From a virus (taxonomy: Duplodnaviria; Heunggongvirae; Uroviricota; Caudoviricetes), in the IMG/VR virus record IMGVR_UViG_3300034102_002177: a DNA stretch of 64,000 nt. One strand, 5' to 3'. Position 1 is the first letter of the stretch; each line of letters opens with the position of its first letter. The notes under the pieces were generated by a model, which was not told the origin of the DNA, did not search any database, and worked only from the letters and a program-made list of their open reading frames with translations. This document shows, piece after piece, positions 1 to 51,432 of the stretch. Made by a program: the position numbers and the translations under genes.

Positions 1-220
1 CAATTTACTTGGGTTAGTTTAAATATGACATTTGGAACAACAATAGGTGGGTCATTTACTAACACGATTTCACCTATATTACCAACACCACATTGTTTTG
101 TTGCAACTTCATCATATTATATTTTCATAAACAATGTGAGAATTAATAATGATTGTGATACAATAAGAGTTGTTAATCCTAAACCACCAAAAATTCAATA
201 ATTAACTATTTATATACAAA

Positions 221-3418: not shown

Positions 3419-3471
3419 TATATGTTAAACAACATATATTTTACTTTATATGATAATTAACATATAAATTT

Positions 3472-3530
3472 AAATATCGTCTTTTTGACCGATATTTTTA
3501 AATATCGTCTTTATAGACGATATTTTTTTT
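3472..3530. terminator. Tandem hairpins sharing AAATATCG(TC)/(GA)CGATATTT arms, each followed by a T-run, between convergent genes. Bidirectional intrinsic terminator
   Basis: Perfect 8-bp and 10-bp inverted repeats read directly, followed by TTTTTTTT. Confidence 0.6.
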
Positions 3531-5338: not shown

Positions 5339-5410
5339 ATCTATAAATATAGAACTTATTAAAAACTTGTGAAGTTGATATGTTCTTTTATTTTGTCTAT
5401 ATTACTAAAA

Positions 5411-6351: not shown

Positions 6352-7206
6352 ATGGATTTAAAAGAAGTTGCTAACGAAATACGTGAGATAATTGCTCAGA
6401 AGCAAAAAGAACTTAAACTAACGTTTGAGGAGGATTCTCATAAGTATACGATGATAGATGTTGATGGTAAATTAAGAGATGATTTCCCATCTGTTTCAAA
6501 AGTTCTTAAATCATTTTATGAGGAATTTGATTCTGAAGGAATTTCATACAGAAAGGCAAATGGAGATCCGTACGAACAACAACGACTATTAGAAGAATGG
6601 GCGGCGGCTGGTGAGTACTCGGTAAACATTGGATCTAGATCTCACTTCTTTTTAGAAGAACATACGTTAAATGAGTTCGGTCTTGAGAAAGAATTGAGAC
6701 AACCTGTTTTTAAATGTGATGCCGAACAAATCGTTAAAAGTGATACGATGATAGTGGCCGGCAAAAAATACATTGATCTTCTTAAAGAACGAGGATGTGT
6801 ATTATTAGATACTGAAATTGTATTGGGTCACCCTGAATTAGGATATACAGGACAACCTGATAAGGTTTGGTTAGTTATTGGTGTTAATGGTCAAGTTGGT
6901 ATACTTATCACGGATTGGAAAACAAACAAACCAAAAAACTTTGAAACCAATAAGTTTACAAAGCAAATGAAGACACCTCTTGATCACTTACCGGATAATG
7001 CTCTTGGTCACTATAAAACACAACTTCCACTATATGGTAAGTTATTGTTAAAAATGTTAGAGGGATCTAAATATGAGAATATCCAACTATTAGGATGTAT
7101 TATTGTTCTAATAACAGAAGAAAGAGAGTATGTTGAACATAGAGTTGATAAAAAGACAATTAATACTATCTTAGAGATGAATGTTAAACAATATTTGAAA
7201 AAATAA
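6352..7206 (+). CDS. PD-(D/E)XK-family nuclease (lambda-Exo/YqaJ/Cas4-like recombination exonuclease)
   Basis: GQPDKVW ... ILITDWKT gives PD-x(n)-DxK. Sits between primase and Mre11/Rad50 genes. Confidence 0.5.
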   Translation: MDLKEVANEIREIIAQKQKELKLTFEEDSHKYTMIDVDGKLRDDFPSVSKVLKSFYEEFDSEGISYRKANGDPYEQQRLLEEWAAAGEYSVNIGSRSHFFLEEHTLNEFGLEKELRQPVFKCDAEQIVKSDTMIVAGKKYIDLLKERGCVLLDTEIVLGHPELGYTGQPDKVWLVIGVNGQVGILITDWKTNKPKNFETNKFTKQMKTPLDHLPDNALGHYKTQLPLYGKLLLKMLEGSKYENIQLLGCIIVLITEEREYVEHRVDKKTINTILEMNVKQYLKK

Positions 7207-8600: not shown

Positions 8601-9186
8601 TAAGGAAACGATTCAGTTAGTAATGGCATTTTGTGAATCCCAAGAAATAAAAGACGTAAACAACTTTATGTATTTATGTTTCAAACAAGGGTTTGATATA
8701 AAGAAATATGGATTTTTAGGGGAAACCGAACAAGAAAAAATTGTAGAAGTTCCTGTTGAAATTATCAAAGAGGTTGAGAAAATAGTTGAGGTTCCTGTTG
8801 AAAAAGTTATTACAAAAATAGAATACATACGTGACCAAAATAACGAAAACGAACTTGTTGAAAAAATTACCAAGTTGGAAAATGAAATGTCTAAAAAGGA
8901 TGAAGAATTAGACGAACTTAGACGTAATTTAGACATAATTGTAGACAAACCACCGGTTGAAGTAATCAAAGAGGTGGAGAAAATCGTTGAAGTCATTAAA
9001 GAGGTTGAGAAACCGGATGATAGGATGGAAATGTTACAAGAAACATTACTTACCTTAAGAAAAGAACTTCAAACAAAAAACGAAAGAATAAAAGAATTAG
9101 AAAAAATAAACCGAGATCTTGAGAACATCAGTTCAAATAAAGGGGCTGTTTTTCTTAGGGGATCAAATTTAAATAATAGATTATGA
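8557..9186 (+). CDS. Coiled-coil protein carrying EKIVEVPVE/IKEVEKIVEV repeats. The start is probably an internal Met (8572 or 8623)
   Basis: Repeats at nt 8737-8806 and 8961-9010. The rest is heptad-like and E/K-rich. Confidence 0.5.
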   Translation: MKTLKMEQKNSKIFSKETIQLVMAFCESQEIKDVNNFMYLCFKQGFDIKKYGFLGETEQEKIVEVPVEIIKEVEKIVEVPVEKVITKIEYIRDQNNENELVEKITKLENEMSKKDEELDELRRNLDIIVDKPPVEVIKEVEKIVEVIKEVEKPDDRMEMLQETLLTLRKELQTKNERIKELEKINRDLENISSNKGAVFLRGSNLNNRL

Positions 9187-14068: not shown

Positions 14069-14173
14069 GAAAAGGGTTGAACCGAGATTACCCTTATAAC
14101 TCGGCGGAATGGGACACGAGGTTCCCTGGGTGAAATTCCTCAACTATATCTATATGGTATAGTGAAACTACAT

Positions 14174-14203
14174 CCCCTCACTGGTACCGGTGGGGGGTTT
14201 TTT
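14174..14203. terminator. GC-rich hairpin CCCCTCACTGG/TACC/GGTGGGGGG followed by TTTTTT. Intrinsic terminator of the sigma operon
   Basis: About 10-bp stem with T-run. The downstream gene is on the opposite strand. Confidence 0.7.
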
Positions 14204-14651
14204 ATACCCATATAACTGTTTGCCAACCGGCAACTCTAAAAGGATTTTCTTTTGATTCTCTAAAAACAGTGATCACATTTAATGTCCATTCTAAGTCATT
14301 TTTTTGAACAGGTTGAATTGCAATTGCAATCTCCCATTTTAATGATTTAACAACAAATCTTACATTTGTGACTATATGGTGGGAAACTATTTTTTCGGCT
14401 ATTTTATTTTTTGCTTTAAGTAATACTTCATTTATCTCGGAATTAGTTATTTCTCTTTGATTATAATCGTAACTATATTTACCTGTTAAATCTTTACCCT
14501 TACCCTCCAAATCAGGCCTCATTCTTCTTGCCCAAGCGTGATTTTCCCTATTTATCTCAAGATAAAAATCAGAATTTAAATTAACTGACATATTACCAAT
14601 AGTCCGTTCAATAAGTAAATGTTTTAATATTGTGTTCCTAAGTAATGACAT
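14202..14651 (-). CDS. Hypothetical protein: a single opposite-strand gene island
   Basis: 149-aa ORF. No recognisable motif. Confidence 0.4.
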   Translation of the reverse strand: MSLLRNTILKHLLIERTIGNMSVNLNSDFYLEINRENHAWARRMRPDLEGKGKDLTGKYSYDYNQREITNSEINEVLLKAKNKIAEKIVSHHIVTNVRFVVKSLKWEIAIAIQPVQKNDLEWTLNVITVFRESKENPFRVAGWQTVIWV

Positions 14652-14701
14652 ATGATTATAAATATGTTATTATTGATATTTATAAACACATAACAATTAT
14701 T

Positions 14702-18770: not shown

Positions 18771-18792
18771 TATTTATATAAAAAACAAGAAA

Positions 18793-24673: not shown

Positions 24674-24714
24674 TTTTTTTTATTTCTTAGATATTTATAT
24701 TAAAAAAAGTCAAC

Positions 24715-30725: not shown

Positions 30726-30741
30726 ATCTAATTAATAAATA

Positions 30742-30770
30742 TAAAAAAAGGTGGAAAAATAATTCTCCAC
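30742..30770 (-). terminator. Minus-strand intrinsic terminator GGTGGA-N10-TCCACC with a T-run on the minus strand
   Basis: Perfect 6-bp IR. The A-run at 30743-30748 is the T-run on the minus strand. Confidence 0.45.
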
Positions 30771-30793: not shown

Positions 30794-30934
30794 TTACTTA
30801 TTCTTGTAATATTTCTCAACAATTTTTTTCACAGATTCCTGAACCGTAGCATTTTGTGGTGCTGGCTGAGGTTGTGCTTGTGGTTGAGGTGCCGCTTGTG
30901 CTTGATTTTTTTTACATCCGCATCCCATGATCAT
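30794..30934 (-). CDS. Small Cys-rich protein MIMGCGCKKNQAQAAPQPQ...
   Basis: 46-aa ORF followed by its own terminator. Below the track cutoff. Confidence 0.3.
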   Translation of the reverse strand: MIMGCGCKKNQAQAAPQPQAQPQPAPQNATVQESVKKIVEKYYKNK

Positions 30935-30978
30935 TTGTTTTTATTAGGTTTATTTATCTATAAATATCTAAAGATTAT

Positions 30979-37291: not shown

Positions 37292-37627
37292 ATCTCCCTC
37301 GGTGATATCGTATTTGATACAATCACCACCATTGATCTCTAAGATCATATCACCAACACCTTCATAGTGGGAACATTTCGTATTGTCTTGTTCCCTACAT
37401 GGAGGACAGTCACTGTAAATTTTTTGAATTTTACCGTCTGATATGTAAATGATGTCTAAAGAAATCAAACAATCTTTCATCCAAAATGAATGATAACCTT
37501 CATTCATTACAAATAACATTCCATTAAATGTGTCATTAAATTTTTTACCTTTCATCCCTTCTTGAATGTCTTTATCAGTTATTGCTGATTTGACATTAAA
37601 AAGATTATTGTTTATTATTATTTCCAT
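37271..37627 (-). CDS. DUF192 (COG1430) family protein
   Basis: GMLFVMNEGYHSFWMKDCLISLDIIYISDGKI and LEINGG cores. Confidence 0.55.
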   Translation of the reverse strand: MEIIINNNLFNVKSAITDKDIQEGMKGKKFNDTFNGMLFVMNEGYHSFWMKDCLISLDIIYISDGKIQKIYSDCPPCREQDNTKCSHYEGVGDMILEINGGDCIKYDITEGDSILIKE

Positions 37628-37646
37628 ATTTATAAATATAGGAGGT

Positions 37647-38066: not shown

Positions 38067-38163
38067 AATTGAATTTTGGTAAATAATGGTATATTTATAT
38101 CATACAAAAACAACCAAAATCCCCCTTCTCAGTTATTTAATGGTTAATCAAAACATAATCCCA

Positions 38164-38210
38164 TAATTTTTTTAAAAAAAAAGTTGTGGGATTTTTTGTT
38201 TTTGTTTGGC
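38164..38210. terminator. Hairpin ATCCCATA-loop-TGTGGGAT followed by a T-rich run
   Basis: Near-perfect IR with a palindromic T7/A9 loop. Confidence 0.4.
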
Positions 38211-38227
38211 AGTTTAAAAAATAGTAT

Positions 38228-40343: not shown

Positions 40344-40823
40344 ATGGGAACAAATTATTACAGAATACCAACTGTAAATGAATTGGAAACAAGACGAAAT
40401 CGTCTTATGTCTAGAATTAGACAAATGGAATTAACTGTGGAATCGGTTAGTAAAGATTTTACGATTGGGGATCCTACTAAATTTGACAATTGGTCACCTT
40501 GGGATGAGTTTAGTGATAATGTAAAAGTTCATTTAGGTAAACGTAGTATGGGGTGGAAGTTCCTTTGGAATTTTAATGATGATAAGTATTTTAAGGATAA
40601 AGAATCACTATTTAAATTCATTAGATCAGGACGTATTATAGATGAATACGGAAATGAAATGAGTCAGGAAAAATTCATTGATATGGCTCTTTCTTGGGGT
40701 AAGGAAGATGGTTATGATATTGAGTCATACTATTTGGAATATCCTGAACGTAGAACTTCCTGGAGTAAACCTGAACGTTATGTGGATGGATTAAGAATAT
40801 CAGATTCAACAAACTTTAGTTAA
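40344..40823 (+). CDS. Hypothetical protein
   Basis: 159-aa ORF. Confidence 0.4.
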   Translation: MGTNYYRIPTVNELETRRNRLMSRIRQMELTVESVSKDFTIGDPTKFDNWSPWDEFSDNVKVHLGKRSMGWKFLWNFNDDKYFKDKESLFKFIRSGRIIDEYGNEMSQEKFIDMALSWGKEDGYDIESYYLEYPERRTSWSKPERYVDGLRISDSTNFS

Positions 40824-40882
40824 TTTTCCTTGTTTAGTAAAACAAGGTGGTGGAGTCGGACAATTCGTTGTCGACCTTTAAA

Positions 40883-40909
40883 GGGAGGGGTTAACCTTCC
40901 CTTTTTTTA
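40883..40909. terminator. GGGAGGG-GTTAA-CCTTCCC hairpin plus TTTTTTT, between convergent genes
   Basis: 7-bp stem with T7. Confidence 0.65.
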
Positions 40910-41451
40910 TTTAGTTTTTCTAAATAAGATTTAACATTTGCTTTTGCTTTAAATAAATTTGATTTTGAGGTCCCATCACTAATTCCTAATTCATCGGCAA
41001 TTTCTTGGTGAGACATATTTTCAAAATAATACATATTAAAAATTCTTTTATATGATGGTGATAAACTTTCCATCGCATCTTTAATATCTGACATAGAAAA
41101 AATGGGTTCTTCATTTGGTATATCCTCAAGACCTAAATCTTCATAACCAAAATCAACATCTTTTCTTTTTGGAGATCTTTTTTCTTTTCTTAATTCATCA
41201 ATAATTGTATTTTTTATAATACGTTGAATCCAACCTTCAAGGCTACCTGAACCATCGTACATAGACATTTTTTGGTGAACTTTAATAAACCCTAATTGAC
41301 AAAAATCATTTGCCTTTTCTATATCACCATTTGCATATCTTAAACAAATTTGTTTAAATAGTTTTGGGTATAATCTTTTATATTCAAGATCAAAATTAAA
41401 ACCTTCATTTAATAGGTGTTGATATTGTAACTCAGTCAAGATAATTTTCAT
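40891..41451 (-). CDS. ECF-type (sigma-24 family) sigma factor, orphan with no adjacent anti-sigma
   Basis: Region 2 YPKLFKQICLRYANGDIEKANDFCQLGFIKV. Region 4 LSPSYKRIFNMYYFENMSHQEIADELGISDGTSKSNLFKAKANV. Confidence 0.7.
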   Translation of the reverse strand: MKIILTELQYQHLLNEGFNFDLEYKRLYPKLFKQICLRYANGDIEKANDFCQLGFIKVHQKMSMYDGSGSLEGWIQRIIKNTIIDELRKEKRSPKRKDVDFGYEDLGLEDIPNEEPIFSMSDIKDAMESLSPSYKRIFNMYYFENMSHQEIADELGISDGTSKSNLFKAKANVKSYLEKLNKKREG

Positions 41452-41492
41452 ACATATAAATAGTTGTTTATTAAAAAAAAATTTTCTATATT

Positions 41493-41900
41493 TTGATTAT
41501 GGAAAAAATATTATATATTGTTCGTGGAATTCCAGGATCCGGTAAATCCACATTTGCCAAATCTTTAGGTGGTACTCACTTTGAAACTGATATGTTTTTT
41601 ATGAAAGACGGTGAGTATAAATTTGATATGTTTAAACTTAAAGAGGCTCATAAATGGTGCCAGGATAGTGTTTATAGTGCAATGCTATTAAATCATACTG
41701 CGTTATTAAACAACGTAATTGTTGTTTCAAACACATTCACTCAAGAATGGGAAATGAAACCATATTTTGAAATGGCGGAATATTTTGAATATAAAATTTT
41801 TTCCATAATTGTGGAAAACAGGCACGGTGGTATTAACGAACATAATGTACCTGAAGAAACATTAACCTCAATGAGAAATCGGTTTGAAATAAATTTGTAG
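41493..41900 (+). CDS. P-loop polynucleotide kinase-like protein (T4 Pnk N-terminal domain-like)
   Basis: LYIVRGIPGSGKSTFAKSL Walker A. Resembles the T4 Pnk N-terminus ILTIGCPGSGKSTWAREF. Confidence 0.6.
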   Translation: MIMEKILYIVRGIPGSGKSTFAKSLGGTHFETDMFFMKDGEYKFDMFKLKEAHKWCQDSVYSAMLLNHTALLNNVIVVSNTFTQEWEMKPYFEMAEYFEYKIFSIIVENRHGGINEHNVPEETLTSMRNRFEINL

Positions 41901-41902
41901 TT

Positions 41903-42817
41903 ATGAGTAGATTAGATAAATTAAAAGAACAACATCCTGAATTAAACATTACAATTATTGATCTTATTGGTATGATAGATCCTACCGATACTTACAAGTA
42001 TTCGGAGTTTCTAATTAAAATTTTGAAAAATTGGTATGATAATATGGACATACGATATGGAATTGGGGTTGATCTTTTTGGTGATGAGAATGTAGAGACC
42101 TTAAATGAGTTTGAAAAACATTGTAAGGCAAAAAGAATTGAAAAAAACGATATTAGTCAACATACCACCTTTATAACTTTACAAAGTGAGGTTAATAAGG
42201 CTAAAGAAATTCTTAGATTGAAAGAGTTAGAAAAACAAACCAAAAAATTACTTGAACACGGAGAATGGTTGGTTATGATACCATTAAGTTATGAAGCGGC
42301 GAAGTTATATGGGGCAAATACTAAATGGTGTATAACTGAATTAAAATATTGGAATAACTATGTTGAGAATTATAAAATTATTTATGTGATCAATAGAAGT
42401 ACGGATGTTAAATACGCTATCTCTAGAGATAAAACGGATAATAAAGATTTAAAAGCGTGGTTGTCTGATGATAGTGAGACAAGTCCATTACTATTAAATA
42501 TACCTCAGGAAATATGGTCGGTGGTAATACCTGAATTACAAAAAGAAGAATCAATATGGGATTTACTACCAGATAATAATAAGATTATTCCACATAATTT
42601 GGGTTCGGATAACATCCTTGATAGAGTGAGAAATTTATTAATCAGCAATAGTACGGGCACAACAAATTTGACCGGAGGTTATATGGGTGACATAAATACT
42701 GATTTCCGCACTGACGCATATAAAACTTACAGTACATATGGTACATATGGAGATGATTTTGAAAAGTATTTAAGAGAATATATGTATACGTCAGATGAAT
42801 CAATTGATTTACCTTAA
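41903..42817 (+). CDS. KWCT-core paralog family protein, copy 1
   Basis: EWLVMIPLSYEAAKLYGANTKWCITE...YKIIYVINRS. Confidence 0.55.
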   Translation: MSRLDKLKEQHPELNITIIDLIGMIDPTDTYKYSEFLIKILKNWYDNMDIRYGIGVDLFGDENVETLNEFEKHCKAKRIEKNDISQHTTFITLQSEVNKAKEILRLKELEKQTKKLLEHGEWLVMIPLSYEAAKLYGANTKWCITELKYWNNYVENYKIIYVINRSTDVKYAISRDKTDNKDLKAWLSDDSETSPLLLNIPQEIWSVVIPELQKEESIWDLLPDNNKIIPHNLGSDNILDRVRNLLISNSTGTTNLTGGYMGDINTDFRTDAYKTYSTYGTYGDDFEKYLREYMYTSDESIDLP

Positions 42818-42828
42818 ATAAAAAGAAT

Positions 42829-43482
42829 ATGAAATTTGATAAAATATTAACAACAGGTAGAGTGTGGGTCACATCGGATCCACATTACAACCATAAAAAC
42901 ATTTGTAGAGGGGTAACGAATTGGAGAACCCAAGATGGTGAGATTCCTATTAATAGTACAAGAGATTTTCACACAATAGATCTAATGAATAATGTTTTAG
43001 TGGATAACATAAACTCAAAAGTTGGACAGAACGACACATTAATTATATTGGGTGATGTTGCGTTCGGTGGTTTTGAAAGTATTAGAATTTTCTTGGATCG
43101 TTTGGTGTGTAAGAATATTCATTTAGTTATGGGTAATCATGATCAACACATAAGAAACAATAGAGATAACATCAAAGATATGTTTTTATCTGTGAGCGAT
43201 TACCTCCAAGTTAATATTGACGGTGCCGATTTTGTTATGACACATTATCCATTTGAAAGTTGGAATGGTCTTAATAAAGGTGTTATACACCTTCACGGAC
43301 ACGTTCACTTACCTGCAAGTAAAAAGTGGGGTAAAGGTAAACGATTAGATGTTGGTGTTGATGGTAACAATCTATCACCATATAGTATAACTGAAATTGT
43401 ACATATGATGGATAAACGAGATATCGTTCCTGAAATGGAAGGTGATCACCATTTAGATGATTTAATTGGGGTTATTGGATAA
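42829..43482 (+). CDS. Calcineurin-like metallophosphoesterase (lambda-PPase or CthPnkp-phosphoesterase type)
   Basis: DPHYNH, ILGDVAFGG, GNHDQ, LHGHVH. Confidence 0.75.
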   Translation: MKFDKILTTGRVWVTSDPHYNHKNICRGVTNWRTQDGEIPINSTRDFHTIDLMNNVLVDNINSKVGQNDTLIILGDVAFGGFESIRIFLDRLVCKNIHLVMGNHDQHIRNNRDNIKDMFLSVSDYLQVNIDGADFVMTHYPFESWNGLNKGVIHLHGHVHLPASKKWGKGKRLDVGVDGNNLSPYSITEIVHMMDKRDIVPEMEGDHHLDDLIGVIG

Positions 43483-43509
43483 TTTAATATCCTCAATATA
43501 TTTATTAGT

Positions 43510-44748
43510 ATGAAAATTATTATAACTGAAAGTCAATGTAGAATTATTAATGAGGCGTTAGGTGTTCCTGACAATATTCTTGATGCCGCAGAAAAACTAT
43601 TTGAGATAGTATCTAAAGATATTCAAACCATTAATACCAAACAAGAAGAATATAATTTTGAGGGGGATTTAGATATTGAGTTAGGGTATAATAAAAAAAT
43701 AATTATTGATCATTATGAGTTATCGGTTGAGGTAAAAGAATTTGATGAATACAATGGTGAACCGGATGTTCTATCAATGGGTATGGGTCAAACATTTAGG
43801 TTTGATAGAAAAATTATGATGAAAAAAGTTAAACCATCAACGAATGCCGCTTTAGTAATAACATTTGCGGTTTCACCATATTGGGAACCTAACCAGTTAT
43901 ATGAAACTTTAATAAAAAACAAGAGTGAACATTTATCTTCACTAGCGCATGAACTAAAACATAAGTACGATAAACAAGCGAAACAAACTGATTTAATCGG
44001 TAGAGATGTAAAATATAGTGCAACACAAAAAATCTCTACATTTGGAATACCTGTGATAGATAAACAATTTTTTAGGTATATGTACTATACTTCTATTGCT
44101 GAAAATTTAGTAAGACCAACTGAAATTGCATCTGGACTTAAAAGTGAAAATATAACAAAATCTCAATTCAGGGAATTTTTACAAAACAATAGAGTTTATA
44201 AAGAATTAATTGAAATTAAAAATTTTACATACGAAAAACTTATTGAAGGTTTGTATGAAAGGATGGACAGAGTGGATGCATTACTTAACCATATTGGAGA
44301 AGATACGGATGAAATGACGGATCAAGAAAAAGTTGAAAGAGTACTAGAACTTGTATTTATAAATCTTGCAAATATAAAAATTGAAATATTTGATGAAATG
44401 GTTAGTACTGAGAACGATATGTTAAAAAGTTTTTTTAGACAAATGGTGGGTAATGTACCTTCATTTATGGAAGATGATGAAGAAAAAAACGTGGATAAAG
44501 TAAGGAGAAAAATTATAAATAGTATTGTTAAATATGAAAAAGACCCCTTAAGATTCTTCCAAGACGAGTGCGAAAAATTTAATTACATTACAACAAAAAT
44601 GTTGAAAAAAATTGGTAAACTTTATGCTATGGCAAAAGATGATGAACCGGTTAATGAATCTATCATTAATTGGGAACTTCATCAGAAGTTAATGGAAAAA
44701 AAGTATGGAAAAAGACCAATACACAAAAAAATTTCTTACTTAAAGTAA
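43510..44748 (+). CDS. Hypothetical protein
   Basis: 412-aa ORF. Confidence 0.5.
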   Translation: MKIIITESQCRIINEALGVPDNILDAAEKLFEIVSKDIQTINTKQEEYNFEGDLDIELGYNKKIIIDHYELSVEVKEFDEYNGEPDVLSMGMGQTFRFDRKIMMKKVKPSTNAALVITFAVSPYWEPNQLYETLIKNKSEHLSSLAHELKHKYDKQAKQTDLIGRDVKYSATQKISTFGIPVIDKQFFRYMYYTSIAENLVRPTEIASGLKSENITKSQFREFLQNNRVYKELIEIKNFTYEKLIEGLYERMDRVDALLNHIGEDTDEMTDQEKVERVLELVFINLANIKIEIFDEMVSTENDMLKSFFRQMVGNVPSFMEDDEEKNVDKVRRKIINSIVKYEKDPLRFFQDECEKFNYITTKMLKKIGKLYAMAKDDEPVNESIINWELHQKLMEKKYGKRPIHKKISYLK

Positions 44749-44768
44749 ATTAATCAAAATTTTTTTAT

Positions 44769-44776
44769 TATCTTTG
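44769..44776 (+). promoter_or_regulatory. Bacteroidetes-type -7 box TAtcTTTG, 7 nt upstream of a short ORF
   Basis: Exact motif. Confidence 0.5.
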
Positions 44777-44783
44777 TTCTTAT

Positions 44784-44963
44784 ATGAAAAAACCATGTAA
44801 GGAATGTCCTCATTTTATCAAAAATCATCACAATGATATGATTGTTAGTTTTGCCGAAAGAACCGGTAAAAAACATAATTGTCATATGACGGAAGGAAAA
44901 AAAGATTTGTGGAATGTAACGGATAAGAAACTTGAATGTTATGGTAGTAGAAAGGACAGTTAA
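44784..44963 (+). CDS. Small Cys/His-rich (zinc-binding-like) protein, 59 aa. Below the track cutoff
   Basis: MKKPCKECPHFIKNHHND...NCHMTEGKK...ECYG. Promoter immediately upstream. Replaces the antisense track ORF 44754..44978. Confidence 0.4.
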   Translation: MKKPCKECPHFIKNHHNDMIVSFAERTGKKHNCHMTEGKKDLWNVTDKKLECYGSRKDS

Positions 44964-45222
44964 GAAGAAATATATCATTGTGTTTTTAAGTGCTTCGGTT
45001 CTTGAAATTGGGAGTACTTTTTACATTAGTGTGGTCTCAGATAAGGATTATCTTGGTATGATGTTTTTTGCATTTATTGGGCCATTTCTATCATTACCAT
45101 TTGTTGGTTTTATGGTTGAATCAAAAACTTGGAAAGAAAGATTAAAACTTGCTTTATGGTCAGGTTTTGGTTATTTGATTGGTTCATTAATAACTATTAT
45201 ATTTTTTGAAATATTAAAATGA
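44932..45222 (+). CDS. Small membrane protein
   Basis: Three hydrophobic helices. Start uncertain. Confidence 0.35.
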   Translation: MNVMVVERTVKKKYIIVFLSASVLEIGSTFYISVVSDKDYLGMMFFAFIGPFLSLPFVGFMVESKTWKERLKLALWSGFGYLIGSLITIIFFEILK

Positions 45223-45581
45223 AAAAAAAAGAAACAAAATTTGGAACCTATATAGATATGGAAACAAAAAGTAACTCAGAAATAACCGGAGATAAAATCA
45301 CGGTATTCGTAGAAAGATTAAAAAAGATTGGTATTGAAGTTAAACTTGTGGGTAACTATCCTTGGGTTTATATTGATGAAATCTGTGGTATTAAAGTAAA
45401 AGAGAAGTTCGCGGGTAATCACGGGTTTACTATAATCTTTCTTCCTGTAAGAACTGACACACCGCCAAGCGATTTTACCGATATTGGGGAGACATTCAAA
45501 TTGATAAGAAAATACAGTAGACAAGCTCTATTGGTAAAACTTATGAAAGATGATGAAGAAAGTGGAATGTATGAAAATTAA
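45219..45581 (+). CDS. Hypothetical protein
   Basis: 120-aa ORF. Confidence 0.4.
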   Translation: MKKKETKFGTYIDMETKSNSEITGDKITVFVERLKKIGIEVKLVGNYPWVYIDEICGIKVKEKFAGNHGFTIIFLPVRTDTPPSDFTDIGETFKLIRKYSRQALLVKLMKDDEESGMYEN

Positions 45582-45592
45582 AAAAAATAAAA

Positions 45593-46036
45593 ATGGAAAA
45601 ACAAAAATATAGAATTTATTTGGATGATGTAAGAACACCGGTTAGTCCTAACAATGCATTGGTGGATGGTATTCCTGAGTGGACTGTGGTTCGTTCTTAC
45701 GACGAGTTCGTACAAAAGATAAACTCAATTGGTTTGGAGAACATTGAGTTAATCTCATTAGATCACGACTTGGGTGACAGTGCTATGTCAGAATGGTTAT
45801 ATGGTGTTACTAAAAACTATTCAATTAACTACGATAACATTACCGAAAAAACCGGTATGGATTGTACTAAATGGTTAGTGAATCAATGGTTAGATGGTAA
45901 ACCTGTTGTTGAAGTTGTAGTTCATTCCGCAAACGCTGTTGGTAGTGCAAATATGATGGGTTACATTAACAATTACCGACACCTCAATCGTTTACCACAA
46001 AATTGTGTGAGAGTACAAATAGAACATACAGTATAA
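45593..46036 (+). CDS. Hypothetical protein
   Basis: 147-aa ORF. Confidence 0.45.
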   Translation: MEKQKYRIYLDDVRTPVSPNNALVDGIPEWTVVRSYDEFVQKINSIGLENIELISLDHDLGDSAMSEWLYGVTKNYSINYDNITEKTGMDCTKWLVNQWLDGKPVVEVVVHSANAVGSANMMGYINNYRHLNRLPQNCVRVQIEHTV

Positions 46037-46046
46037 AAATAAAGTT

Positions 46047-46307
46047 ATGGAATTAGAAAAATTTGAACAAGCAAAAAAAGTAAAAGAAAACCTTGATAGG
46101 TTGGAAAGACAGAAGTATAAATTGGAATCTGCGCTTAAATCTTGTGGTTTGAGTGTCACGATTGGATTTACACACTCTGGAGGATTCAACAGAAAAGGTG
46201 AGGTCAGTTTCTATAACAAAGAGATTATTAAAGAAATGATCTCTAAAGAACTTGATAGAGTGAATGAAGAAATTGATTTAGTAAAAAAAGAATTTGAAAA
46301 CGTATAA
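46047..46307 (+). CDS. Small coiled-coil protein
   Basis: 86-aa ORF. Confidence 0.4.
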   Translation: MELEKFEQAKKVKENLDRLERQKYKLESALKSCGLSVTIGFTHSGGFNRKGEVSFYNKEIIKEMISKELDRVNEEIDLVKKEFENV

Positions 46308-46310
46308 AAA

Positions 46311-47444
46311 ATGGAAAATTTAAATAGTGTATGTTATGTTGGTGTGATCGGAGAGATATTACCAATAGATGGAGCGGATAACATTGAACTTGCATTGGTT
46401 GGTGGTTGGCAAGCCATTACTAAGAAAGGTGAATATAGTGTTGGTGATAAGGTTGTTGTTGCAACTACCGATGCGGTAATCCCTGTTGAATTATCTGATT
46501 TAATGGGCGTAACTAATTACCTAAGAAAAGGTCAAAGAGTTCGCACCGTTAAACTTCGTAAAGTTTACTCTGAGTGTTTGTTAATACCATTCAAATACTT
46601 GGCACCAAGGTCTTTGGAGAACAATGTAAATGAAGGTCACGACATGATGGAACTGTTAGGTATCACTAAATATGAACCACCAGTTAAGATGGTTGAGATG
46701 AGTGTTGGTGGAAGAAAATTCAAATACCACCAAAACCCGAACTTCCACATTTACTACAAATTCCCAAATATGAAGAACGTACCTGATATGTTCAATGAGG
46801 AGGATGAAGTATGTATCACTCGTAAGTTACACGGAACCAATGCTCGTTACGGTATTGTGAGAAAGAAAAAACTTTCAATCCTTGATAAGATTAAAGGGTG
46901 GTTTGGTAATCAATGGGTTGGTTACGAATACGTTTATGGATCCCACAACGTTGAGAAGGGATCTGACTCTCAAGGTTTTTATGCAACTGATGTGTGGAAA
47001 ACAGTTGCGGAAAAATATGATATCCGTAAAAAACTTTGGGATCACGTTAAAGATACTTTTGATCCTAATGATGTTGGTTCAGGATTTATCATCTATGGTG
47101 AAATCTATGGACACGGAATACAAAAGAATTACGACTATGGTTTAACTGAAATCCGTTTTGCGGGATTTGACGTTGAGGTTGATGGATCTTATGTTGATAA
47201 CATTTACCAATCAACTCATTTTAAATGTTTAGGTTTAGAAGAAGTTGAAACTTTATATTCAGGTCTTTGGTCAAAAGAAGAACAAGATAAATATGTGTTT
47301 AATAACAACATTCAAGGAACTAAAGTTCCTCACGAAGGTATTGTTGTAAAATGTTTATCTGGTAATCGTCATAAGATTGGAAAAGTAATCAACCCTGATT
47401 ATTTAATTTACGGTGAAAAAAATAACGTAGGTGACTCCCATTAA
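46311..47444 (+). CDS. RNA ligase, Rnl5-type (DraRnl/NgrRnl-like)
   Basis: Motif I as KLHGTN (KxHGxN variant characteristic of DraRnl), motif IV EGIVVK, motif V HKIGKV. Confidence 0.65.
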   Translation: MENLNSVCYVGVIGEILPIDGADNIELALVGGWQAITKKGEYSVGDKVVVATTDAVIPVELSDLMGVTNYLRKGQRVRTVKLRKVYSECLLIPFKYLAPRSLENNVNEGHDMMELLGITKYEPPVKMVEMSVGGRKFKYHQNPNFHIYYKFPNMKNVPDMFNEEDEVCITRKLHGTNARYGIVRKKKLSILDKIKGWFGNQWVGYEYVYGSHNVEKGSDSQGFYATDVWKTVAEKYDIRKKLWDHVKDTFDPNDVGSGFIIYGEIYGHGIQKNYDYGLTEIRFAGFDVEVDGSYVDNIYQSTHFKCLGLEEVETLYSGLWSKEEQDKYVFNNNIQGTKVPHEGIVVKCLSGNRHKIGKVINPDYLIYGEKNNVGDSH

Positions 47445-47488
47445 CTTGATGGGATCACTTTTTTTATTTATATTTAAAAAAATAACAA

Positions 47489-49407: not shown

Positions 49408-49507
49408 ACTGACAAAATGTCAGTATTTTACGAATGGAACATTTTTTGGGAAACTTGGTACGACTGAAAAGTAATAATAAATAAAAAATAAAAACTAAAA
49501 ATTAAAA

Positions 49508-51403: not shown

Positions 51404-51432
51404 TTGACTTAACGGTATTTATAACTTATACT
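51404..51432 (+). promoter_or_regulatory. Sigma-70-consensus-like promoter TTGACT-N17-TATACT
   Basis: Read directly. -35 at 51404-51409, -10 at 51427-51432, 21 nt to the ATG at 51454. Confidence 0.45.

Follow-up and report, generated by a model that had tools for sequence, protein, structure and literature searches.

Which promoters does an alternative sigma factor of bacterial type read when it is carried by a phage, and what does it do there? The question is raised by a gene at 40891..41451 on the minus strand of a 64,000-nucleotide (nt) stretch, hereafter the window, of the Caudoviricetes record IMGVR_UViG_3300034102_002177 in IMG/VR. A preliminary description had proposed an orphan extracytoplasmic function (ECF) sigma factor at 40883-41492, a span that comprises the sigma gene, a 3' hairpin and a 47-nt divergent promoter region. 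Phage-encoded sigma factors are a classic means of timing viral gene expression, and to our knowledge next to nothing has been learned about how transcription is controlled in phages of Bacteroidota, hosts which follow an unusual TTTG/TAnnTTTG housekeeping promoter grammar and have no Shine-Dalgarno sequences. We find that the phage gene is accompanied neither by the partner gene nor by the promoter of its closest cellular homologues, and that a phage-specific TATTTAT box stands ahead of it as well as ahead of late operons. Our reading, put forward tentatively, is that the gene may encode a dedicated middle/late sigma factor for this box.

The Sigma Gene and Its Product

The open reading frame (ORF) of 186 amino acids (aa) is the longest possible reading, with no in-frame start codon further upstream. 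Its product matches Sigma70_r2 (PF04542) at aa 30-92 (E-value 6.7e-13; 48.7 bits, with a cut-off of 24) and Sigma70_r4_2 (PF08281) at aa 123-171 (3.5e-16), as well as Sigma70_r4 (PF04545, 1.6e-8) and Sigma70_ECF (4.7e-6), all of them beyond the curated Pfam cut-offs, and no Pfam match to Sigma70_r3 or to region 1 was obtained at E ≤ 1. The best match in NCBIfam is TIGR02937 (sigma70-ECF, 3.2e-28), the next ones being ECF subfamilies, and in PHROGs the protein matches phrog_1740, 'RNA polymerase sigma factor' (7e-29). Its relatives in the PDB are ECF sigmas without exception, namely SigE, SigH and SigL of M. tuberculosis, SigW of B. subtilis and sigmaE of E. coli. The two regions (2 and 4) recognized in the preliminary description are thereby confirmed, and the profile search against sigma domains suggested there did not classify the product as a helix-turn-helix protein other than a sigma factor. 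Judged by its domains and size, which at 186 aa falls within the ~170-220 aa common in the group, the gene product is a member of the ECF group (group 4) of the sigma-70 family, and it is predicted to be a functional sigma subunit that binds the core RNA polymerase of the host.

The sigma2 domain (aa 30-92; 41176..41364, minus strand) and the sigma4 domain (aa 123-171; 40939..41085, minus strand), both delimited by Pfam, are separated by an acidic linker of 30 aa. In sigma2, a YDGSGSLEGW loop and an NTIIDELRK segment align to cellular homologues, and in sigma4 the phage clade and the cellular family do not differ in the helix GTSKSNLFKAK. The sigma4 signature I[SN]xGTSKSNLxKAK, which takes the form ISDGTSKSNLFKAKA in the phage sigma, is invariant across both alignments made. 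Residues of the core-binding type (FIKV, GW, ID..R) are conserved in the phage sigma as well, and an N-terminus of the form MKIIxTESQYxxL is specific to the phage clade.

An identical sigma protein is found on many metagenome contigs, and metagenomic homologues number in the hundreds, those of 98% to ~44% identity being located on phage-like contigs with IMG/VR among the sources. The phage contigs with homologues of 93-44% identity are 72-311 kb long. Protein matches to the sigma in the phage collection have 23-32% identity and come mainly from crAss-like phages. A neighbor-joining tree was considered for the monophyly of the phage clade, and no conclusion was drawn from it because the purity test hinged on an arbitrary root and an unclean 'phage' set. 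In some distant phage lineages from IMG/VR (L303, L304, L298, L329 and L317-L333), the reading frame of the sigma domain continues that of an upstream ORF, uninterrupted by a stop codon ahead of the conserved MK(L/I)..E start, and these extensions may be either fusions or the result of internal starts; an ORF of ~950 aa comes after the sigma in some of the same lineages.

Partner Gene and Promoter of the Cellular Family

The closest cellular homologues, with 41-48% identity over the full length, belong to Flavobacteriales (Crocinitomicaceae, Cryomorphaceae, Fluviicola, Wandonia and Lishizhenia). At 77 of 78 cellular loci, a partner gene (median 422 aa, median overlap 4 nt) directly follows the sigma gene. 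The partner protein has a short conserved cytoplasmic N-terminus (...E.PYD..AW...), PKD or CHU_C domains in its external part and, in 75 cases, a transmembrane-like segment between aa 30 and 100; Pfam finds no anti-sigma domain in it, and we label it a candidate anti-sigma factor because of its single-pass anti-sigma topology only. The cellular loci are further characterized by the motif aGGCAACc-N16-CGT[CT]t, a textbook ECF autoregulatory promoter, which stands ~20 nt ahead of the start codon in 73 of 80 loci and has a spacer of exactly 16 in 68. Operons under this promoter (GGCAAC-N16-CGTY) encode the sigma, the partner and large surface proteins with PKD/CHU_C domains, among them proteins of the type IX secretion system (T9SS) type.

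Neither the partner nor the promoter was found in the phage. When a hidden Markov model of the N-terminal 75 aa of the partner was run on the six-frame translation of the window and ~50 kb of extensions, the best E-value was 0.21, with all controls recovered (77/77), and Pfam searches of ten sigma-neighbouring proteins returned nothing relevant to anti-sigma factors. The gene is an orphan as had been proposed, in that no anti-sigma gene follows it and the partner of the cellular loci has no homologue in the phage; a co-transcribed anti-sigma gene is the usual, though not the invariable, companion of an ECF sigma. The ECF promoter searches took in the window, its extensions on both sides and related phage loci (268 + 18 + 80), and in none of these did the result rise above that of shuffles. 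A position weight matrix of the cellular promoter reached a best score of 14.7 in the window (training median 24.5; shuffle maximum 19.9), and not one site with a score of at least 19 was present in 2.95 + 0.30 + 0.91 Mb (~4.1 Mb) of related phage loci. The generic form AAC-N16/17-CGT, with 24 copies in the window as compared to 35.7 ± 5.2 expected, is if anything depleted, and the one copy that lies within 60 nt of a start is intragenic. The preliminary description had expected an AAC/CGT-style ECF motif upstream of the structural genes; neither the family-specific nor the generic form was found or enriched upstream of phage genes, structural ones included. By its signature only, the phage sigma belongs to the GTSKSNL-type subfamily of Flavobacteriales, as a member without partner or promoter.

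The sole intergenic AAC-N16-CGTC match of the window is located in the convergent spacer 3419-3528 and is not a promoter: it arises from three copies of AAATATCGTC, arranged as two hairpins that probably form a two-way terminator.

A Phage-Specific TATTTAT Box

Two promoter classes could be distinguished in the window, of which one (class 2) consists of the single box TATTTAT(A/T). At the sigma gene, the box is an exact TATTTATA (41455..41462, minus strand) 3 nt ahead of the ATG. This layout, TATTTAT-N4-ATG, is invariant in relatives and is kept upstream of sigma genes of 93, 82, 69, 63, 52, 48, 46 and 44% sigma identity in three gene contexts; the box is the predicted sigma promoter, and the mRNA starting from it is predicted to be, probably, leaderless. 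Exact TATTTATA is present in 24 copies on both strands, 13 of which fall within the non-coding 6.4% of the window, and in spacers between plus-strand genes its orientation is 6:1 along the direction of transcription. TATTTAT occurs in 14 of the 42 upstream regions of the window, compared with 3.8 expected, a count that none of 2000 shuffles reached, and each minus-strand unit in the window is headed by such a box.

The box often comes directly after a terminator hairpin (47465, 30743 and the gp25 operon), and it often stands 3-5 nt ahead of an ATG (the sigma, DUF192, 5338, 14651, 43510 and the gp25-like gene), which is the position of the host -7 box on a leaderless mRNA. It is kept at orthologous sites in dozens of relatives, at the gp25-like baseplate operon and at the tail genes encoding proteins of 1897, 302, 686 and 844 aa. 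By comparison, TATTTAT was found 3 times in 258 upstream regions of the cellular relatives, where 7.2 ± 2.6 were expected; since it is not enriched there, it is a phage-specific signal. No -35 element accompanies these sites, as 20 aligned sites carry no information beyond the core. The CAAC/ACAA beside the sigma box was considered as a -35 element and rejected, because the TTG (-33) of the divergent kinase promoter described below accounts for it by complementarity. A T4-like reading of the box in the reverse sense (TATAAATA) is ruled out by the 6:1 orientation bias and the fixed gap of 3-5 nt to start codons. The preliminary description had also called the sigma unregulated, which is not established, given that its gene has a TATTTAT box itself and no host-type promoter.

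Host-Type Promoters

The other class (class 1) has the form TTTG-N~20-(TTTAAAAAA)-TAnnTTTG, chiefly TATCTTTG, and is found ahead of the plus-strand genes at 6352, 12773, 27158, 31012, 38262, 39601, 44788, 54981 and 57986, with imperfect versions ahead of 32544 and of the kinase gene that is divergent from the sigma gene. As a control, the 258 upstream regions of the cellular relatives' loci contain 40 copies of TAnnTTTG, compared with 8.5 ± 2.8 expected. No class 1 promoter was found on the minus strand across the window, the sigma gene included. In the 47-nt spacer between the start codons of the sigma and kinase genes, each class is represented by one promoter, the two being placed back to back. 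That of class 1, which serves the kinase operon (41464..41495, plus strand), is made up of TTG at 41464-41466, an A tract and TATATTTTG at 41487-41495 (TATCTTTG in relatives), 3-4 nt ahead of the ATG at 41499.

Promoters of the E. coli type (TTGACN-N16-18-TANANT) were rejected as a class, since they are not enriched (4 seen, 4.8 expected). Two intergenic matches to TTGACT-N17-TATAAT/TATACT were observed, at 51404-51432 in the window and at 8781-8809 in the related locus L370. Upstream of the HSP70 gene (49408-49507), there is a conserved sequence TGGAAC-ATTTT-TTGG...ACGACTGAAAAG that is neither a class 1 nor a class 2 box and has a faint -24/-12 likeness.

What the Sigma Factor Might Read

The reading that we consider best, with some reserve, is a dedicated and self-activating middle/late phage sigma that reads the TATTTAT box. 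Early genes would be read by the host holoenzyme from the host-type promoters (TTTG...TAnnTTTG), which occur on the plus strand only in the window. The sigma would be expressed as a one-gene minus-strand unit whose sole conserved upstream signal is the TATTTAT, 4 nt ahead of the ATG, giving a leaderless or near-leaderless mRNA. It would then bind the host core RNA polymerase and guide it to TATTTAT boxes at the baseplate and tail-fibre operons, at the other minus-strand units and at several plus-strand genes, so that the sigma might act as a middle/late factor and reinforce its own synthesis.

ECF sigma genes usually have their own promoter directly upstream, and because this position holds a TATTTAT box at the phage sigma gene, the sigma may be what reads the box. 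That it would be dedicated to this purpose is suggested by the box being phage-specific, by the gene being a core gene and by the sigma being the sole sigma or transcription factor recognized in a non-redundant genome span of ~120 kb examined here. The middle/late role had been put forward in the preliminary description, and it remains the best reading, as one that we infer; its basis is now the TATTTAT box common to the sigma gene and late operons.

Several observations weigh against this reading. Phage and cellular clades do not differ in the sigma4 recognition helix (GTSKSNLxKAK), which implies a conserved -35-type target. Such a target is lacking at class 2 sites: GGCAAC is the -35 element of the cellular family, whereas TATTTAT sites have no conserved -35. 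The sigma2 loop sets -10 specificity in the ECF sigmas studied (E. coli sigmaE-DNA structures), and this loop varies across phage lineages (DGSGSLEG, RGDNLNG, TGTNVCG, DDVRNVQG) while the box is invariant; in the lineage of the window, moreover, the loop is the same as the cellular one. No covariation ties the sigma to the box. Further, the sigma gene has no host-type promoter, and therefore a self-dependent loop would need a basal start. Finally, the head, neck and sheath genes are outside the sampled DNA.

Some of these difficulties would disappear if the TATTTAT box were read by the host polymerase with another early phage factor, and if the sigma served a third promoter class, either situated in DNA beyond the sampled span or too degenerate to be recognized. 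Such a cascade, which we regard as rather unlikely, would remove the start-up problem of a sigma gene without a host-type promoter, and it would agree with an invariant box alongside a variable sigma2 loop and with a sigma4 helix whose conservation implies a -35-type target. Capsid, portal, terminase and sheath genes were not seen in the ~120 kb, and further extension of the map gave only accessory, replication and tail genes, so that a third class could lie with the genes for head, neck, sheath and packaging; many proteins of the window are also without annotation. However, the sampled DNA yielded no other transcription factor, the genes for baseplate and tail fibres, which normally are the latest class, are already under TATTTAT, and the relatives' contigs of 116-128 kb leave little space for a large extra module.

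The identity of the sigma4 helix, together with a sigma2 loop (YDGxGSLEGW) that matches the cellular family in the window's lineage, could also mean that the sigma keeps its cellular DNA specificity. Free of the partner, it would activate the GGCAAC-N16-CGTY promoters of the host, and TATTTAT would be read by something else. The sharply defined cellular promoter is absent from the window and the ~4.1 Mb of related phage DNA; if specificity is unchanged, the targets would have to be outside the phage, and the cellular operons that might be induced include T9SS-type surface proteins. Host-mimicking phage sigmas have been described (PMC9429907) and would be a precedent. Yet a very diverse phage lineage keeps the gene in its core and in synteny, a pattern that suits an essential function better than an accessory one; the gene has the same box as late structural genes, which is late for a takeover; other phage lineages do not keep the sigma2 loop; and the host partner, if induced, might still bind the phage sigma. 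We therefore consider it improbable that the sigma acts on host promoters in this way, and equally doubtful that a widespread lineage of large freshwater phages has, as a core gene, a copy of a host ECF sigma freed from its anti-sigma, which would induce the PKD/CHU_C and type IX secretion regulon of the host during infection, with late genes of the phage on a separate TATTTAT system. The absence of both the partner gene and the promoter of the cellular family would also be expected of a captured host gene that is decaying or non-functional. This is extremely improbable in view of an intact ORF with both domains above the Pfam thresholds, of hundreds of phage-contig homologues in which length, position, box and 3' element are conserved, and of invariant core-binding and helix residues; frameshifted or truncated copies were not seen as a rule among the relatives.

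Should the sigma read TATTTAT, as in the dedicated-sigma reading that we prefer, it would represent an ECF sigma that has region 4 intact and works on a -10-only promoter; should it read host promoters, its gene would be one for regulatory hijacking. Neither outcome, useful as it would be, would change the field, given that phage sigmas are a familiar theme, ECF-like ones among them, and that a sigma is already on record for a similar lineage. The present analysis adds the contrast to the cellular family, the failure to find the expected ECF motif, a map of two promoter classes with a phage-specific and probably leaderless TATTTAT class, and a conserved 3' element. The locus thus offers a testable two-class promoter map for an abundant uncultured lineage of freshwater phages, as well as a natural contrast within one ECF family that has a partner and a cognate promoter in bacteria and lacks both in phages.

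Comparison with Known Sigma Factors

The phage sigma and the cellular Flavobacteriales family with the signature I[SN]xGTSKSN have in common the two-domain build, the sigma4 helix and similar sigma2 segments. The cellular family has the adjoining partner gene and the GGCAAC-N16-CGTY promoter, whereas the phage sigma has neither and possesses its own N-terminus (MKIIxTESQYxxL). With the class of middle/late phage sigmas (gp55, gp28/gp34 of SPO1, gp36 and gp47), it shares that it is a sigma encoded by the phage and that a phage-specific promoter class stands before late genes.

In T4, gp55 is the late sigma, which uses the late promoter TATAAATA; it has a region-2-like part only and needs gp33 and the sliding clamp. 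The window resembles T4 in its virion module (gp25-like and gp6-like baseplate proteins, and a UvsX-like protein) and in having an AT-only single box of the -10 type before late genes. However, TATTTAT(A) is the reverse complement of the T4 box and is read in the opposite sense relative to the genes. The window's sigma is an ECF sigma by profile, with ECF or general sigma families as best matches in Pfam, NCBIfam and PHROGs, unlike the region-2-only gp55. Homologues of gp55, gp33 and gp45 did not turn up in general scans, in which no search was aimed at them.

The sigma gp36 of phiEco32 reads a single-element, AT-rich promoter, tAATGTAtA, with transcription starting 6-8 bp downstream, and gp47 of Salmonella phage 7-11 is a late sigma (PMC8948821). 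Both are phage proteins of the sigma-70 family that redirect the host core polymerase to phage promoters, the same logic as that proposed here, although they have no detectable close homology to the sigma of the window. The -35-less promoters of gp36 are explained by its lack of region 4, whereas the window's sigma keeps a highly conserved region 4.

Bacillus phages are reported to carry sporulation-type sigmas that mimic those of the host (PMC9429907). The likeness to the present case is that of a phage copy of a host alternative sigma able to act on host promoters; however, those sigmas belong to another sigma group, other hosts and accessory genes, whereas the sigma of the window is core and has a phage-specific box. 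Recently, large aquatic phages named 'moraphages' were reported with predicted Bacteroidota/Flavobacteriia hosts, GlnS, DnaK, T4-like virion genes and a widely shared sigma (PMC12619734, 2025). In that study, the sigma is merely listed (as the VOG 'sigma-F factor'), with no analysis of promoter, partner or function (PMC12619734). The phage of the window looks like one of that kind in its freshwater origin, T4-like virion genes, GlnS, HSP70 and sigma, and may belong there.

Layout of the Locus and a Conserved 3' Element

The sigma gene is a lone minus-strand gene amid plus-strand genes, and minus-strand ORF calls in the window amount to about eight of ~100. Its divergent neighbour is an AAA_33 P-loop kinase gene (4e-8; 41499..41900, plus strand; 133 aa) that heads a plus-strand operon. 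The opposite-strand position divergent from the kinase gene was correctly described earlier, with the difference that the ATG at 41499 is a likelier start than the TTG at 41493, because the calls in relatives are of 133 aa. The kinase gene is divergent from the sigma gene throughout the relatives of 93-44% sigma identity, and gene order around the sigma is unchanged in lineages down to ~62% identity. The plus-strand run 41499-47444 encodes, besides the kinase, a calcineurin-like phosphoesterase (42829-43482), a cREC_REC 'cyclic-phosphate processing receiver' protein (45593-46036) and an RNA ligase (46311-47444), and resembles a T4 Pnk/Rnl-type cassette for RNA repair.

The gene that comes next (40344-40823) is convergent, and hence none follows the sigma gene on the same strand. 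Small antisense ORFs at 40675-40812 and 40358-40489 were dismissed as genes, being located inside this conserved plus-strand gene. The convergent spacer (40824-40890, 67 nt) folds into three hairpins. An intrinsic terminator of the convergent plus-strand genes (40880..40909, plus strand; four overlapping calls; z = -3.5) has a stem that overlaps the stop codon of the sigma gene at 40891-40893. The terminator scan gave a canonical terminator on the plus strand only (40880-40904 plus T run) and no canonical intrinsic terminator on the minus strand of the spacer. The earlier claim of a convergent arrangement through a bidirectional terminator accordingly stands as regards the convergence and the terminator on the plus strand, and fails as regards two-way action of a canonical terminator, which is present on one strand only.

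On the minus strand, the 3' flank of the sigma gene consists of two hairpins (40855-40875 and 40828-40847) joined by TCCACCA (40828..40875; fold z = -4.6). This 3' element is nearly invariant in lineages of 44-50% sigma identity with different convergent neighbours, and its conservation goes beyond that of the sigma protein itself. A single compensatory change, G-C to A-T, was observed in L283; alignment folding misaligned the variable hairpin and was uninformative, and the element matches no Rfam family. It may be a 3'-untranslated region element, a small RNA or a protein site, all of them candidates.

The Phage, Its Relatives and Its Host

The window has a GC content of ~30%, no tRNA genes were found in it, and no Rfam families were found in the whole window or in three intergenic regions. 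Its genes encode a primase, an exonuclease, an SbcCD-like nuclease, DNA methyltransferases, an RNA ligase, HSP70, a glutamine synthetase (GlnS), NUDIX and DUF192 proteins, glycosyltransferases and many unknowns. The map was extended on both sides through contigs with identical window proteins. To the left are giant plus-strand genes encoding proteins of 1897, 589, 273, 390, 302, 1005, 817-858, 326, 686 and 844 aa, preceded by gp25-like and gp6-like baseplate wedge genes, and still further left are genes for RNR, a DnaB-like helicase, an exonuclease, a UvsX-like protein, SSB, another baseplate protein and a 2357-aa tail protein. To the right are genes for thymidylate synthase, ClpP, a protein with a type IX secretion sorting domain, and lectin-like and accessory proteins. 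The attribution to a phage in the preliminary description is thus borne out by baseplate wedge, tail, primase, SbcCD, RNR and UvsX-like genes in the window or in matching contigs, and the window is part of a large T4-like freshwater myovirus.

The relatives are found on contigs of 110-311 kb, nearly all of them from freshwater metagenomes. The phage collection contains no near-identical DNA, and protein matches there, such as HSP70 with at most 65% identity, are mostly to huge uncultured phages. The host is probably a member of Flavobacteriales. Phage proteins at L106 14878-16788 and L109 7918-9981 gave matches to a type IX secretion sorting domain (Por_Secre_tail) and, weakly, to the SprB repeat; these matches fit a Bacteroidota host and hint at use of the host's secretion or gliding surface machinery by the phage. 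An unannotated 302-aa protein of the tail module, just left of the window (L109 369-1277), has 80-99% identity in more than 200 metagenome contigs, mostly freshwater and a few marine, and, being far more conserved than its neighbours, would be a good lineage marker.

Further TATTTAT Sites in the Window

Other exact TATTTATA boxes on the plus strand are located at 207..214, 6 nt ahead of the gene of the 844-aa tail-fibre-like protein; at 18771..18778, upstream of a 469-aa gene; at 24692..24699, upstream of the gene of a 687-aa LRR protein; at 47465..47472, directly after a terminator hairpin; and at 51416..51423, upstream of gene 51454 and within the spacer of the TTGACT-N17-TATACT match mentioned above. 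On the minus strand, the box is found at 5342..5349, 3 nt ahead of the ATG of the unit 5338->3529, and at 14657..14664, 5 nt ahead of the ATG of gene 14202-14651. Next to the latter gene, the spacer 14069-14201 between plus- and minus-strand genes is a GC-rich and strongly structured sequence of 133 nt, with weak, sub-threshold Rfam matches only. A TATATTTAT box (30735..30743, minus strand) lies directly after a terminator and upstream of the minus-strand genes 30725->28883, and an exact TATTTATA (30959..30966, minus strand) lies upstream of the small ORF 30795-30932. This minus-strand ORF of 46 aa (MGCGCKKNQAQAAPQPQ...) is conserved and called in relatives, has its own box and terminator, and heads the island 30932->28883. 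The palindromic TATTTATAAATA at 37627..37638 provides a box on both strands, for the DUF192 gene (minus) and the NUDIX gene (plus).

A TATTTAT box at 43499..43505 (plus strand) stands 4 nt ahead of the ATG of the gene of a 412-aa protein (43510-44748, plus strand). This unannotated protein has a sigma-like N-terminus, MKII(I/L)TE(S/L)Q, and its gene has the same TATTTAT-N4-ATG layout as the sigma gene. In the window and its extensions the N-terminal motif is confined to the sigma and the 412-aa protein, and it is kept in phage sigmas and not in cellular ones; BLASTP aligns the two proteins over 17 residues only (E 0.18).

Finally, the exact TATTTATA at 38092..38099 (plus strand) is followed by ~110 nt of conserved non-coding sequence and a terminator. 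The region 38092-38215 has no Rfam match and a fold z of -3.0; its ~110 nt are almost invariant in relatives of 70% protein identity, with a long A/U-rich terminator hairpin at the end, and it is a candidate small RNA.

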